DNA of 58,741 bases from an uncultured Methanosarcinales archaeon (GTDB taxonomy: Archaea; Nanobdellota; Nanobdellia; Woesearchaeales; DSVV01): the NCBI GenBank assembly GCA_964593285.1, contig CAZQHZ010000008.1, positions 1 through 58,741 of the forward strand, given 5' to 3'. This document shows positions 34,881 through 40,339 of this stretch, one piece after another (positions within the stretch are counted from its first letter, which is position 1; each line of letters begins with the position of its first letter). A program made the position numbers and the translations under genes. The notes beneath the pieces were generated by a model. It saw only the letters and a list, made by a program, of their open reading frames with translations, was not told where the DNA came from and did no database searches.

Positions 34881-34908
34881 ATTTCAATTAATTTTTGTTA
34901 TACGCAAT
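34881..34908 (-). other. dif-like (Xer-type) recombination site 1
   Basis: minus strand ATTGCGTATAA-CAAAAA-TTAATTGAAAT; 11-6-11 layout resembling bacterial dif GGTGCGCATAA-TGTATA-TTATGTTAAAT. Confidence 0.6.
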
Positions 34909-35091
34909 TAAATTTTCACTAGTCTAAATCTCATTCTTCTTTTAGAAAAAGAAGCAAAAGAGGGGGAGTCCAGGTGCTACGCACATATTGCCTTTTACTT
35001 CGTAAAAGAAATTTATTAAGAGGGGGCTTTTAGTCCTTCGGACAGATAGTCTTTTTCTAAGAAAAAGAAATTTATTTTCACTAGACATTTA
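34908..35091. repeat. left structured end: inverted-repeat arms and modular hairpins
   Basis: TTAAATTTTCAC 34908-34919, GAGGGGGAGTCCAG 34960-34973 and AGAGGGGGCTTTTA 35019-35032 all pair with the right end. Confidence 0.85.
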
Positions 35092-35172
35092 TCAACACAG
35101 ATTATTTAAATAGGGTATTTTTCCAAAAAGTAAAAGCAAAACTTTAAATAGGGATTAGTCTACTTTGTATAT

Positions 35173-35316
35173 ATGCCTGTAACAAAGGATAGTACAACTA
35201 TTAGAATTCACAATAAAACAAAATCTAAGCTAGAGAAATTAGATTTTGTGAAAAAATAAACTTATGATGAGATCTTAAATTACCTAATAGAATACTATGA
35301 AAAAAGAGGGAAATAA
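35173..35316 (+). pseudogene. RHH-type small regulator/antitoxin-like gene with in-frame stop
   Basis: MPVTKDSTTIRIHNKTKSKLEKLDFVKK*TYDEILNYLIEYYEKRGK; TAA at 35257-35259; terminal TAA abuts the MTase ATG. Confidence 0.7.
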
Positions 35317-36549
35317 ATGAAACAAATTTTACAAACGCAGTTATTAGGCACATTTCAATTAAATGGTTCTCTAGATATTCATTCTTGGTATAATTATCTT
35401 GCTGGATACTCCGCAGAATTTGTTAAAAAAATCTTAGAGGAAGAAAATATTACTCCTGACAATATTGTTCTAGATCCTTTTTGTGGGGTTGCTACTACAA
35501 ATATCGTTTGCAAAAAAGCCAATATTCAAAGTGTAGGTATTGAAATAAATCCTTTTACTTCATTCGTAGCAAAAACAAAATTATTTTGGGATTTCACAGA
35601 AAAAGAATTAAGTAGTAATTATTCTAATTTTTTTAAACAAATTAATAAAATAAAGAAAACTAAAAAATTTAAATCGAATAATGATTTACTTAATAGAGCA
35701 TTTAGTCCAAAAATTTTAAATGAATTATTAAAAATAAAAGAGACCATTAATAATTTTAAATTAGTTGGTAAAAAAAAAAAATTAAGAAATTTATATTTGC
35801 TATGTCTTATTTCTATATTAAGAGAAGTTAGCAATTACGAAAGTTTTAGTCCTTATTTGAAAAGAAGAGAAACCATGCTAAAAAACGCACCAGTGATTGA
35901 GATATACCAAAATAAATTAAAAAAAATGATGGTTGATTTATATAAGGTTAAAGACAATAAAATAAATCCTGAAATATACAATACTAGTGCAAAATCCTTA
36001 GACTTTTTAAATCAGATTTTTGATGTAGTAATTACTTCTCCACCATATTTGAATAATTGGGATTATAGTTGGATTACAAAAATTGAATTATTTTTTCTTG
36101 ATTATGCTCAAACTAATGAAGATTTAAATAATGGTTTTAGAAAAAATTTAATTAAAAGTTCAACATACCTTTTAAATAATTCAGAACCAGAATTATTGTT
36201 ACCTGAATCTAAAATAAAAAAAGAAATTCTTTCAGTTGTTAAGAAATTAAAGAAAAAAAGATTAATGAAGAAGAATGGAAAAAAATATGATATTATGCTA
36301 ATTGAATATTTTAATGACATGTTTTTAATTTTGAGAGAGATTTATAAGAAAATGAATTATGGAAGCAAAAACATTTGGGTTGTTGGAGATTCAGGATTAT
36401 ATGATGAACATATTAAAACTGATGTTTGGATAGGAAATGTTTCAGAACTAGTGGGCTTTAAATTTTCTAAATGTGATGTTCTGAGGGAAAGAAAAGCATC
36501 AAGACATAAAATTAAATTAAGGGAAAGTGTAATTTATATGGAGAAATAA
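35317..36549 (+). CDS. DNA amino-methyltransferase 1 (probably N4-cytosine)
   Basis: IHSWYNYLAGYS, VLDPFCGVATT, VITSPPY, VVGDS. Confidence 0.9.
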   Translation: MKQILQTQLLGTFQLNGSLDIHSWYNYLAGYSAEFVKKILEEENITPDNIVLDPFCGVATTNIVCKKANIQSVGIEINPFTSFVAKTKLFWDFTEKELSSNYSNFFKQINKIKKTKKFKSNNDLLNRAFSPKILNELLKIKETINNFKLVGKKKKLRNLYLLCLISILREVSNYESFSPYLKRRETMLKNAPVIEIYQNKLKKMMVDLYKVKDNKINPEIYNTSAKSLDFLNQIFDVVITSPPYLNNWDYSWITKIELFFLDYAQTNEDLNNGFRKNLIKSSTYLLNNSEPELLLPESKIKKEILSVVKKLKKKRLMKKNGKKYDIMLIEYFNDMFLILREIYKKMNYGSKNIWVVGDSGLYDEHIKTDVWIGNVSELVGFKFSKCDVLRERKASRHKIKLRESVIYMEK

Positions 36550-36551
36550 AA

Positions 36552-38597
36552 ATGGTATTTCAGATTAATAAACAAAGAATGTATCATATGCCCCATAATA
36601 CAGCTTTATTAAACGAGTTTAAATTTTTATTAGAAGTTATAGACGAGGAAAAATCACAATATACTTTCAAAGAACTTGTAAAACTCCTACTTTTAGAGCA
36701 AATTAAACAAGATAGATTTAAGGAATTTCATGGGAATATGCCTTATAGAATTTTTACTCAAGAAATTCCTCCTGATAAAGATGACTTAATCAAGAAATTT
36801 AAGAAAATTCGTTCTAATCGAACAAAACCCAACGGAATGCCAGATTGGTTATTTAACCTAATTACTAAAAAAAGTGTTGAAGAAGCAACTAAGAAATTAA
36901 TTGAAAAAAGAAAAGAATCGTATAATAAGTTTGTTCAAGATCCTGAAAACAGAATTGATGATTTTTTGAATTGTCAGTATAAACCAACAAAAACATGGAA
37001 ACAAAATTGGGTTGAATTTGTTAGGGATTATGTTGATTTTGCCGCATATTGTGGTTTGATCCCTTGCTATTACAAATTACCTGGAGAAAGGAGTAGTGAA
37101 GAAGATGGTTATGTTGTATCAGAAAAATTGAAGGAATATAAAAGAGGGAATTTTGATTTAAAAGACATTATTTTTCATTTCAAGTATTCAAACTCTTCTA
37201 TTAATACAAGGAGATATACACAATTTAACATACGGGTAAGACCATTTTATTTAGTATTAAGATTATTAGATGGATTAGAAAAAAAGGGAGTTGCTAAAGT
37301 AGAAAGAAGACTTTTATTTGGAGCTATCAGTTGCTTTAAATCTGAAGATGAAATCGAAGATGCAATAAAATTTATTAGTAACTTTATTGATAAAAATGAT
37401 AATCTTCTTTCTGAGAAAAATTTCTCTTCTCAAATTTCTAAGGAAGCAAGCAGAGTAGCAACAGGAATGCTTCCTTTTTTAGAAGGTCTCAATCTAATTG
37501 AATGCATTAAAGATAGAGGTATTAGTTTTTTCAAAATTACAGACGAAGGAAAAAAGTTATTATCATCCTATCCTTCCAATAGTTTATTTTTTGGTCAATA
37601 TGTTAAAGGTATATTCTATTCTCCTTTATTGGCAAGATTGCTTAATATATTTGCTGATTGCGTAAAAAATGAGGAATCTAAAATAGAGATTAAGATTCTT
37701 AAAGAGAAACTTAAAATAAGTCAAACTGAAATTTTTGATCAAGTGTTATCTGATTTACTATCTTTAAAACCATGTCCGATTATAGAAATAAAGAAAGGGA
37801 TTGTTTACCTTAATGACTTGTCTTATCAATATTCAGTAACTCCATTTGTAGATTTTGCCTCATTAAAAGAAGCAGAATATGTTATTAAGGGGGGAATTCC
37901 CTTTAAGGCAACAAAATTAAAGAAAATAGAGTTACCAGATAGCGAATTATTAAAAGAGATTGAATCAAGAGCACTATCTGATGATGGATCAAAATACGAA
38001 GAAATTTTAGAAACAGCATTGAAAAAATTACCTGGATTAATAAAGAGATTTGGGCAATCATCTAGTTTTACTCGTTTAAGTGATGTGGTTTGGCTTGTGG
38101 ATGTTCCAATAGATGGGAAATTTAAGAAAGTACTTACAATAATTGAAGCAAAAGCAGGTAAAGCAATTAAATCATTCAAAGAGACAAAGGAGATAGAAGA
38201 TATAAAAAATACAATATTAGAATTTAAAGAACATTTTACAGATCTTTATGGCGTTTGGATTCTTATAGTTGATAGCGATCAAATGCCCTCAATTAATAAA
38301 CATGGAGGATATAGGGGAGCAGGAAAATATCAATTATCTTTTAGAGATAAGTTATTAAGAATACATCATAATATTTTAACCTCATTTGGTAAACCCGTAT
38401 TAGTTACTGGTTTTGATGTTTATTCTTTTATTGAATATTACAAATATCTTTATTCTAATTTGTATAGTTCTTCTGATACTACAATCCATGAACACGTGGA
38501 ACAGTTCTTTATGAGAGGAAATTTATTTTTTGATGATTATAGATATATAAAAGTAATAAATGATGCAAATGAAATAAAATCACAATTATTTATTTAA
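36552..38597 (+). CDS. putative restriction endonuclease (C-terminal PD-(D/E)xK)
   Basis: lies between two MTases; KYE...SDVVW..IIEAKAG nuclease-like motif; RPF and ITDEGKK wHTH-like features. Confidence 0.65.
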   Translation: MVFQINKQRMYHMPHNTALLNEFKFLLEVIDEEKSQYTFKELVKLLLLEQIKQDRFKEFHGNMPYRIFTQEIPPDKDDLIKKFKKIRSNRTKPNGMPDWLFNLITKKSVEEATKKLIEKRKESYNKFVQDPENRIDDFLNCQYKPTKTWKQNWVEFVRDYVDFAAYCGLIPCYYKLPGERSSEEDGYVVSEKLKEYKRGNFDLKDIIFHFKYSNSSINTRRYTQFNIRVRPFYLVLRLLDGLEKKGVAKVERRLLFGAISCFKSEDEIEDAIKFISNFIDKNDNLLSEKNFSSQISKEASRVATGMLPFLEGLNLIECIKDRGISFFKITDEGKKLLSSYPSNSLFFGQYVKGIFYSPLLARLLNIFADCVKNEESKIEIKILKEKLKISQTEIFDQVLSDLLSLKPCPIIEIKKGIVYLNDLSYQYSVTPFVDFASLKEAEYVIKGGIPFKATKLKKIELPDSELLKEIESRALSDDGSKYEEILETALKKLPGLIKRFGQSSSFTRLSDVVWLVDVPIDGKFKKVLTIIEAKAGKAIKSFKETKEIEDIKNTILEFKEHFTDLYGVWILIVDSDQMPSINKHGGYRGAGKYQLSFRDKLLRIHHNILTSFGKPVLVTGFDVYSFIEYYKYLYSNLYSSSDTTIHEHVEQFFMRGNLFFDDYRYIKVINDANEIKSQLFI

Positions 38598-38598
38598 A

Positions 38599-39408
38599 AT
38601 GGTAAACAACAAATTAAACGATATGACTGGAAAAGAGTGGATTAAATTTACTAAAACGTGGTTTGTTCATGATCCTCCTTCAAGAAAGAAAGATGAGATG
38701 TTACATCCTGCCAAATATCCTGAAACAATGATAGTAGATTTCATAAAATTTTTTACAAAAAAATCTGAAGTAGTTTTTGATCCCTTTCTTGGAACTGGTT
38801 CAACATTGGTAGCATGTAATATGACTGGTAGAAATGGAATAGGAATCGAAATAATGGAAAAATATGCTAAAATAGCAAAAGATAGATTAAAACAAAAATC
38901 TTTAATTGATCAAAAACATATAGTAATCGAAGGCAATTCAATGAATACAGAATCAATTTGGAAAGAAAAAAAACTTTCTGAAGTAGATTTTATTATTACA
39001 TCTCCACCTTATTGGAATATGCTTAAAAAAAGTAGGGGTAATGTTAAGACTACCCAAAAGATTAGAGCAGAAAATGGTTTAGATACCCATTATTCTGATA
39101 ATCCTGATGATTTAGGTAATATTGATTCTTATGAAGATTTCATTGAAAAGTTAGGAAGAATATTTGATAAGATATATAAGATACTGAAGAAAGGGAAATA
39201 TCTTGTTGTTATAATCCAAAATCTAAGGATAAATGGTGAGGTAAAACCTCTTGCATGGGATGTTCAAAAAAGAATATCCAAGAAATTCACATTTAAAGGT
39301 GAAAAGATTTGGTGTCAAGATAAAAAACAATTAGGTATTTGGGGTTATCCATCTGTATTTATACCTAATTATCACCACCATTATTGTTTAATTTTTAGAA
39401 AGGATTAG
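38599..39408 (+). CDS. DNA amino-methyltransferase 2 (probably N4-cytosine)
   Basis: HPAKYPE, VFDPFLGTGST, IITSPPYW, HHYCLIFRK. Confidence 0.92.
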   Translation: MVNNKLNDMTGKEWIKFTKTWFVHDPPSRKKDEMLHPAKYPETMIVDFIKFFTKKSEVVFDPFLGTGSTLVACNMTGRNGIGIEIMEKYAKIAKDRLKQKSLIDQKHIVIEGNSMNTESIWKEKKLSEVDFIITSPPYWNMLKKSRGNVKTTQKIRAENGLDTHYSDNPDDLGNIDSYEDFIEKLGRIFDKIYKILKKGKYLVVIIQNLRINGEVKPLAWDVQKRISKKFTFKGEKIWCQDKKQLGIWGYPSVFIPNYHHHYCLIFRKD

Positions 39409-39420
39409 GTTTTCTCACCC

Positions 39421-39626
39421 TAAATGTTCTTTTAGAAAAAGAACCAAAAGTAAAAGCCCCCTCTATTTTCTTTTTTTAGAAAAAAGAAACAAAAAATCTG
39501 GATTCCCCCTCAGTCCAACGGACATATAGTCTCCTACGGAGAAATTTATTAACGTGAAAATTTAACTCTTCGCCATTTTTTTGCTTCGCAAAAAACCGTC
39601 TTGCAGACTATGGCTCGGTCTTAGCA
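39421..39626. repeat. right structured end: inverted-repeat arms and modular hairpins
   Basis: TAAAAGCCCCCTCT 39451-39464, CTGGATTCCCCCTC 39498-39511, GTGAAAATTTAA 39554-39565; hairpins GTCC-AAC-GGAC, CTCC-TAC-GGAG, TTTTTTGC-TTC-GCAAAAAA. Confidence 0.85.
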
Positions 39627-39655
39627 GACGCGTATAACAGCGAGCGATGTTATAT
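39627..39655 (+). other. dif-like (Xer-type) recombination site 2
   Basis: GACGCGTATAA-CAGCGA-G-CGATGTTATAT; shares GCGTATAACA with site 1 in inverted orientation; one extra base. Confidence 0.55.
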
Positions 39656-39729
39656 CAATTTTTTGATTTGAAAACAAAAAGAAAAAGTACCAAAAAATTT
39701 AAATATATATTACCAAATTGTTTATATAA

Positions 39730-40146
39730 ATGGAAAAGAATAATAAATTTTTTAAGATTTATTTTATATTAGTACTAGTTTATGCAATTATCGGATTGTT
39801 AGATTCTTTTGTATTCTCCGGAATGAAAGAAACATTTGGACAAATTTCTACCATTTGGATGATTATTGGATCATTATTTGGACTTATCAAATTTATTTTA
39901 AGTATAATTGCATTAATAATTTTTATTAAAAAAAAGTTTTCAAAAATTACTTTAGTGATTCCTATTTATCATCTTGTAGCAACAGTGTTATTATTCATTT
40001 ACGGGTTTGCTTGGGGCATTTTATCTGCCGTGCAGGGGAATTCAATTAATGAACAATTAATACCTCCTGGAATGATTGCTATTGGAATAATATCTTCATT
40101 ATTTGAATTAATATTTTCAATTTATATTTTATCAAAATTTAAATAA
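39730..40146 (+). CDS. hypothetical four-TM membrane protein
   Basis: 138 aa with four hydrophobic helices. Confidence 0.75.
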   Translation: MEKNNKFFKIYFILVLVYAIIGLLDSFVFSGMKETFGQISTIWMIIGSLFGLIKFILSIIALIIFIKKKFSKITLVIPIYHLVATVLLFIYGFAWGILSAVQGNSINEQLIPPGMIAIGIISSLFELIFSIYILSKFK

Positions 40147-40339
40147 AGACCGTTTTTCGTAAATTTATTTTATGGATGCAAATTTTCAGAACTTTACTTC
40201 GCTTTTAGCTATAAACTAACTTAACAACAAGCAATTTTATTGATTGTGATTTTATTTTGGATTTGTTTTATACACATATTATTTTTAAGATGTATTTCAT
40301 ATTAATTCCTCAATATATAGCTATTAAGAATTTTTATAA

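Follow-up and report, generated by a model that had tools for sequence, protein, structure and literature searches.

The folded attC site of classical integrons has an unpaired central spacer and extrahelical bases in its L box, and in true integrons the I2 domain suppresses exchange at the opposite spacer edge. Escudero et al. 2016 (PMC4792948) named two problems as open: the origin of the I2 domain and of attC sites in the absence of one another, and the making of cassettes. Archaeal integrons and clusters of attC sites lacking an integron integrase (CALINs) were reported by Ghaly et al. 2022 (PMC9668308), whose screen lists, for Woesearchaeales, six genomes that carry attC clusters but lack IntI. 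Here we analyze a stretch of 58,741 nucleotides, referred to as the window (contig CAZQHZ010000008.1 of assembly GCA_964593285.1), from the 1.18-Mb, AT-rich genome of a Woesearchaeales archaeon. It contains a 4,752-bp integron-like gene cassette (34898-39649; all features are given on the + strand) whose cargo is a type IIS-like restriction-modification system and whose ends are built of nested complementary arms and of two kinds of hairpin module, X and Y. Its own complementary boxes, a signature of integron cassettes, define the limits of the cassette. We consider it probable that the element belongs to an integron-like cassette system of Woesearchaeota-type archaea, in which zipping of the ends on the bottom strand aids recombination and the X and Y modules act as clamps.

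The initial annotation of this DNA had proposed that the two ends pair across more than 4 kb, with the left order t-X-a-Y-b-Y and the right order X-b'-X-a'-Y-t', and this arrangement was recovered as described. The t arm (34908..34919) pairs with t' (39554..39565) in 12 of 12 positions, the G-rich a arm (34960..34973) with a' (39498..39511) in 13 of 14, the odd pair being G.T on the top strand and A.C on the bottom strand, and the G-rich b arm (35019..35032) with b' (39451..39464) in 14 of 14. Among the arms lie X1 (34937..34959), Y1 (34974..35017) and Y2 (35033..35076) on the left and X3 (39427..39449, the innermost X), X2 (39468..39494) and Y3 (39513..39550) on the right, an X consisting of a hairpin and a tail and a Y of a hairpin, a linker, a second hairpin and a tail. 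Two elements had been overlooked. The recombination boxes R' (34896..34905) and R'' (39630..39639) form an outer pair of 10/10 bp in which each box is the private partner of the other, and a multi-hairpin branch, W (39566..39629), lies between t' and R'' with a 2-nt bulge opposite it on the left; W-type branches were found again in the related cassettes that we parsed. The nested end repeats were confirmed as real and beyond chance. Their chain of nested helices scored 115 (approximately 91 once a spurious helix joining hairpin arms is left out). When the left end was paired with 1,492 segments of 301 nt drawn at random from the same genome, the maximum was 54, and three helices were formed in none of the 1,492 pairings. 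The local hairpins of both ends fold as described (z of -2.2 and -3.0). An Rfam scan of the window detected one tRNA and gave no match at the cassette ends.

Other proposals about the ends held only in part. Three similar X-Y junctions had been predicted; two are closed, and the third has no closing inner helix in this copy. Relatives close the innermost junction by a fourth helix, and a stretch at 39408..39421 resembles their c' arm (compared with L072 and L289), for which no partner was found on the left side. Most loops had been read as GAA or GTA, which applies to five of the seven C-G-closed triloops; the three X loops are closed by T-A and are not of the GNA type. Compensatory variation of the Y stems was genuine in the first hairpin, and the second hairpins are different stems. 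The cassette had also been thought to lie between two dif-like sites. The left site (34881..34908) is dif-like, with the 11-6-11 layout of the sites found beside recombinase genes (see below), and its crossover is inferred to fall between G34897 and T34898. The right site (39630..39659, R'' included, with G39649 as the last base of the cassette) is a collapsed attC-like site in which, by comparison with full and short sites, the inner arms are gone and the next arm is one base short. The flanks are better described as attI- and attC-like sites of an integron-like array than as a plain pair of dif sites.

The pairing of left and right ends was found to be a private property of each cassette. 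The left end was matched in 10 of 40 relatives, and arrays with such ends stand behind a divergent tyrosine recombinase in genomes G024 and G012. The cassettes follow one plan: a GTT-N6-AAT start, their own complementary box at the end and then a hairpin site. Of 50 site-to-site intervals, 38 had an R' that differed from its own R'' by no more than one mismatch. Two cassette sets were examined, with nine cassettes in common and 112 distinct cassettes in all. For the first, 57 cassettes were parsed and the 15 selected on t or X were counted apart, leaving 42 site-defined cassettes; at least two nested long-range helices joined the own ends of 37 of these, as compared with 51 of 3,142 swapped pairs. 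Similar results were obtained with the second set, which consisted of 64 cassettes from recombinase- or site-anchored fetches without selection on X or Y: at least two helices were present in 45/64 own ends versus 6/2,500 swapped ones, and at least three in 23/64 versus 0/2,500. The a arms vary among cassettes yet remain complementary (23 anchors chosen by eye). In homologous ends, as the initial annotation had anticipated, the left-right pairing is conserved, the arms covary and the cargo is variable.

Multi-gene cassettes of up to 9.8 kb exist. The strict hairpin-site pattern was present in 98 of 401 genomes of the order, a tally that takes in unpublished genomes (G266 is among the 98), and the reversed control gave 2 hits; the X-arm-Y end pattern gave no hits in viral contigs. 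Duplicate loci (L056, L092, L093, L110 and L382) were excluded from the counts. When metagenomes were scanned with the recombinase profile, most of the contigs recovered were short or distant, and one further cassette could be parsed. Fifteen matches of a Gluconacetobacter type were left out as a different repeat; L054, L057, L060, L082 and other Gluconacetobacter loci contain a multi-copy 57-bp match to the search pattern, apparently an unrelated repeat. X/Y ends were also seen on short contigs of genomes labelled as bacteria or as a halophile (L049, L066, L081, L086, L102, L122 and L059), which may reflect misbinning or real transfer.

The proposed rule that every X faces a Y was borne out by the relatives. 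A Y or partial Y was opposite X in 39 of 42 junctions, a count in which one cassette was entered twice and families are related, and X facing X was never seen; two of the three exceptional junctions are apparent parsing errors and one has a variant Y. Conversely, Y was found opposite an unlabelled stretch in 19 junctions (many with a purine linker) and opposite a larger hairpin, Z, in 5. In 98 distinct modules the third pair of the first Y hairpin was C-G 56 times and G-C 39 times with one mismatch, a split that two inherited variants could explain. A Y was counted as placed if a cassette site lay within a set distance of it. By this rule, 105 of 159 Y modules stood beside a site in the correct, fixed orientation, 18 were at contig edges and 36 were unplaced, most of the latter looking like ends with damaged sites. 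The controls gave 226/3,000 for random placement and 8/159 for the wrong strand. Since Y is tied to cassette ends in a fixed orientation, a reading of the modules as scattered repeats of the repetitive extragenic palindromic (REP) kind fails. The strict Y pattern was detected in 30 of 301 genomes of the phylum, one unpublished genome included, with no hits in the reversed control.

Some ends are of mixed composition. At L097 the left and right ends belong to different end families, and the b layer of the present cassette also occurs under another outer family (G373:C18; L334, L335). The layers could be tracks of cargo capture, the folded G-rich helix between X and Y being itself an exchange point and the layers a record of cassette building, not an aid to excision; whole left and right layers would then be swapped or nested together with the cargo that they enclose. 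The sharing of one b layer by two different outer end families fits such a history, and so do the likeness of the a, b and c arms of one cassette, the presence of cargo in either orientation and the boundaries of the cargo, which by eye is delimited in several cassettes by the innermost Y tail and the innermost X head. However, no enzyme was identified for such an exchange, end modules could also be exchanged between circles by ordinary homologous recombination, and the unlike ends of L097 are consistent with an exchange that was not concerted. We regard cargo capture as a possible but unlikely origin of the layers.

Longer cassettes bear more X/Y layers, and these come as left/right pairs. 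In the 64-cassette set, Y was present in 2 of 40 cassettes shorter than 1.2 kb, in 2 of 11 between 1.2 and 2.5 kb and in 9 of 13 from 2.5 kb upwards (Fisher p = 1.4e-5, which is overstated, as the nine Y cassettes represent approximately five end families). Inside the end family of the present cassette the number of Y modules rose with length (rho 0.86, n = 10), and the number of helices followed length more weakly (rho 0.43, n = 24, with one cassette per family). This scaling would also be expected if Y were a priming signal, a single-strand origin at which primase begins to copy a cassette that has been excised or has come in as a single strand; longer cassettes would then need more of these signals. 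The fixed orientation of Y and its conserved unpaired linker and tail are in agreement with that role, and mini-hairpins are reported at the priming sites of phage G4 and ssiA (PMC13037366). However, the 38 of 40 cassettes below 1.2 kb that have no Y would need priming as well, and the facing of X and Y would be left unexplained, so that we think a priming function distinctly unlikely.

The cassettes are linked to a recombinase and an attI-like site. With the strict pattern, an 11-6-11 site was detected 72-333 nt upstream of the recombinase gene in 15 of 23 loci, and its spacer ended in TG in 14 of these 15. The end family of the present cassette lies directly behind the recombinase site in L069, L095, L107 and L119, and in L344 it follows an attI-like site at a locus that holds a site-linked recombinase. 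The recombinase is closest to XerA. When the G024 enzyme was aligned with IntI4 (2A3V), query residues 194-203 spanned 186-237, approximately 42 residues being missing at the IntI-specific (I2) insertion. This insertion was present in none of 20 aligned enzymes; the two enzymes tested scored under the TIGR02249 cut-off, and one enzyme passed the XerA model. A search of 151 genomes with the IntI model gave no match and is uninformative, as the control was also without a match at that threshold. XerA-like genes were found in 100 of 121 genomes of the order (unpublished G122 and G141 included). In a quick tree of 88 enzymes, one cluster of 33 rows contained 28 site-linked, 1 unlinked and 4 unscorable enzymes and another of 30 rows held 29 unlinked ones, and the tree required 8 label changes versus 27.2 after shuffling. 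Several genomes, G030 among them, carry one site-linked and one unlinked enzyme, which favors a dedicated paralogue; in the closed genome G024 the array-linked enzyme is the sole strong XerA-like match.

Some junctions within arrays have no hairpin, and in these the R'' arm, the 6-bp attC spacer and the arm of the next cassette make up a plain 11-6-11 site. The pattern gave 18 hits, 17 of them genuine-looking, versus 165 full 3' halves; the loci are L354 (four), L325, L120, L086, L102, L106, L112, L037, L126, L147, L157 and L171. Exchange at the opposite spacer edge may have produced such junctions. They also bear on the possibility that the sites serve the housekeeping XerA as double-stranded dif-type sites, as in pdif modules, with folding being secondary. 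The 11-6-11 layout (site as defined in PMC2958812), the hairpin-less junctions, the enzyme that passes the XerA model and the single strong match in G024 all agree with a XerA substrate. However, the site-linked enzymes mostly form a cluster of their own and several genomes hold both kinds, full hairpin sites are commoner than hairpin-less ones, and signatures confined to one strand (described next) would be senseless for a duplex substrate. We judge this explanation highly unlikely.

Two strand-specific motifs point to folded bottom-strand DNA, in support of the single-stranded fold that had been suggested. C-GNA-G was the bottom-strand reading of 81 of 109 G/C-closed triloops of the cassette ends, and the top strand gave 0; in cassette interiors GNA loops numbered 1 versus 1 of 75. 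The 64-cassette set showed the same bias (62 of 91 triloops on the bottom strand versus 0 on the top). Tandem G.A/A.G mismatches in the ends numbered 72 on the bottom strand versus 1 on the top, compared with 5 versus 5 in the interiors. Both GNA mini-hairpins and tandem G.A pairs are reported as unusually stable in DNA (PMC3201870, PMC8163305, PMC13037366), and for mini-hairpins poor binding of SSB, the protein that binds single-stranded DNA, and resistance to nuclease are described (PMC13037366). X and Y might instead act in RNA, terminating or insulating the transcription of cassettes; this role was rejected on loop type and strand. T-tracts in X and in the second Y hairpin would suit such a role, but the modules are oriented by the recombination boxes with cargo lying either way, the end hairpins have triloops and include no UUCG tetraloop, and GNA-type mini-hairpins are far less stable as RNA (PMC13037366); we would give it only a very slight chance.

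These comparisons established the architecture of the ends, the private pairing, the strand signatures, the scaling with length and the link to a recombinase. In the mechanism that we propose for the integron-like system, the bottom strand would turn single-stranded during replication or as incoming DNA, and R'/R'', t, a and b would zip up the ends, giving a single branched rod whose loop holds the cargo. In an excised circle the pairing of the ends would lengthen the folded attC into a long dif-like duplex, which the recombinase would join to attI through one strand exchange at G|TT; a mismatch in the spacer would stop the second exchange and replication would resolve the product, as for CTXphi. 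Within an array, two neighbouring sites would pair into a four-way junction branching at the crossover, from which a single exchange would free a circle. The X and Y modules are most likely fast-folding clamps that resist SSB and nuclease, possibly with an accessory protein bound, and they would hold the distant ends of a multi-gene cargo in register. For classical cassettes from 1.5 kb, excision is reported to fall if a flanking site folds poorly (PMC5371416), and this loss offers a reason for extra layers. The initial annotation had also suggested that folding brings the two sites together; in agreement with this, a modelled circle junction folds R''/R', t, a and b and sets both recombination arms side by side.

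Several observations weigh against this mechanism. Evidence for a circle or an empty site was not obtained from reads or contigs, and no protein binding X/Y was identified. At least two R mismatches were found in 12 of 50 intervals, several of which span a missed site. Y was missing from 4 of 13 long cassettes, and in the set without X/Y selection helix number correlated with length at no more than rho 0.36 (n = 54). Related end families are not independent, so that p-values are overstated. The folding energy of the whole junction is strand-neutral (-86.4 top, -86.1 bottom), and the mismatches of the long helices comprise 5 top wobble, 8 bottom wobble and 5 others. When 12 small natural cassettes were folded, the winner on the bottom strand was long-range R pairing for 4 cassettes and the local fold for 7, and on the top strand long-range R pairing won for 7; the local fold and the long-range box pairing look like a switch. 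Finally, the enzyme tree was quickly built, and its main cluster does not include 10 of the 38 site-linked enzymes. A bolder version, which we put forward tentatively and consider rather unlikely, is that of a living proto-integron in which a dedicated I2-less Xer paralogue shuffles single-stranded cassettes whose ends set up the Holliday junction beforehand, and new multi-gene cargo is captured by exchange at the X-helix-Y junction. If true, it would offer a visible route of cassette genesis, with layers added in left/right pairs.

The copy in the window is probably stranded, judging from its collapsed attC, its atypical left site and a frameshifted recombinase, and its restriction-modification cargo may hold it in place. 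The left arm of the left 11-6-11 site departs from the pattern of recombinase-linked sites, and no upstream attC (hairpin) half was found; this site is probably a secondary or decayed attI-like target. Neither a full attC partner for the left site nor a second intact site was found in the genome. Its only close recombinase match, a XerA-like gene, is frameshifted and lies on another contig behind an 11-6-11 site of its own (G000:C5:1-948, L001), where the site precedes a short inverted repeat resembling an empty cassette and the contig ends. A decayed X-arm-Y relic was seen at a contig start upstream of a 163-aa open reading frame (ORF) (G000:C17:25-101, L044), with no convincing partner arm in the genome, and a fragment of an IS200-type transposase is present elsewhere, unlinked. 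Collapsed attC-like sites recur at several loci (approximately 20 genuine-looking among 53 pattern hits) and may lock cassettes in place. At L009 (G034:C42) a near-identical left end starts right where an upstream open frame ends and the hairpin site is absent, a layout that suggests insertion at a secondary site.

The cargo starts with a small regulator-like ORF of approximately 47 codons with an in-frame stop (35173..35316), directly ahead of the first methyltransferase gene. It has weak full-frame matches across the stop to small ORFs of other loci, and it may encode a ribbon-helix-helix protein. The gene at 35317..36549 encodes a type II DNA methyltransferase of 410 aa (Pfam N6_N4_Mtase; PADLOC MTase_II, E = 8e-51), and a second one, of 269 aa, is encoded at 38599..39408. 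The 681-aa protein encoded between these two (36552..38597) is a probable FokI-like type IIS restriction endonuclease. It had no match in Pfam, NCBIfam or PADLOC; atlas feature matches of 0.95 connected it with FokI clusters, and its structure match was below the naming bar. A short motif at 35075-35086, upstream of the small regulator gene, is shared with restriction-modification cassettes of G024 and G012; it is oriented by the cargo and not by the cassette and overlaps the end of t. Behind the collapsed site lies a 138-aa hydrophobic ORF (39730-40260), possibly a second cassette in decay; neither an end pair to match nor, among the fetched loci, a relative was found for it. The 50 proteins scanned as cargo under X/Y ends often belong to restriction-modification systems and also include transporters, a decarboxylase cluster, a peptidase and a helicase, encoded in either orientation. 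Nested insertion sequences or miniature inverted-repeat transposable elements with terminal inverted repeats would likewise leave cargo bounded by nested inverted repeats, but no transposase was found among the three long ORFs of the cassette or the 50 cargo proteins, and the repeats are private to each cassette and lie inside the R boxes, which leaves this origin next to no chance.

No description of such a system was found in the literature searched, which omits most subscription papers. The site motif does not occur in the text of the supplement of Ghaly et al., and some overlap with the attC clusters of their six genomes is possible. As the site pattern was present in 98 of 401 genomes, compared with the six listed in that published screen, a common platform for defence-gene capture in DPANN archaea may be largely unannotated. 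An I2-less enzyme that apparently uses folded single strands would make the problem of the origin of I2 and attC testable with one protein and short oligonucleotides, and the making of cassettes can be approached through end layers that are paired and scale with cargo.

Among known systems, the archaeal XerA/dif pair (PMC2958812) resembles the present one in its 11-6-11 site and XerA-like sequence, and plasmid cer/psi sites (PMC5357621) do so in having extra sequence adjacent to the core that could bind accessory proteins. Unlike in both, the array-linked enzymes here form a separate paralogue cluster, and an accessory region would arise only via single-strand folding. The GNA mini-hairpins and sheared tandem G.A pairs described for DNA (PMC3201870, PMC13037366, PMC8163305) are the same motifs, found here on one strand only and, in contrast to those reports, within repeated, paired junction modules at cassette ends. 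Integrative mobile elements exploiting Xer (IMEX) of the CTXphi type (PMC5357621, PMC4792948) share an Xer enzyme without the I2 domain and, as we infer for the present system, its action on a folded single-stranded dif mimic and single exchange with replicative resolution. In contrast to these elements, the recombinase gene and its attachment site are linked here to arrays of excisable-looking cassettes, with no phage genes in the cargo scanned and with an end pattern absent from the viral contigs searched. The closest likeness is to integrons, with which the system shares the recombinase gene, the adjacent attachment site and the cassette array, the AAC...GTT boxes with their crossover at G|TT, the cassette-private complementarity of R' and R'', the bias to the bottom strand and the defence cargo. 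It differs from them in its recombinase, which has no IntI-specific insertion, in its folded site, where full sites show arms that are paired throughout and a spacer that is paired except for a 2-nt bulge, unlike the Nanoarchaeota attC tested by Ghaly et al. 2022 (PMC9668308, Data S9), which is of the classical type, and in a complementarity that nested arms and X/Y layers carry far past the R box. The system works like an integron, but its enzyme does not pass as an IntI, and on this ground it is set apart from integrons.

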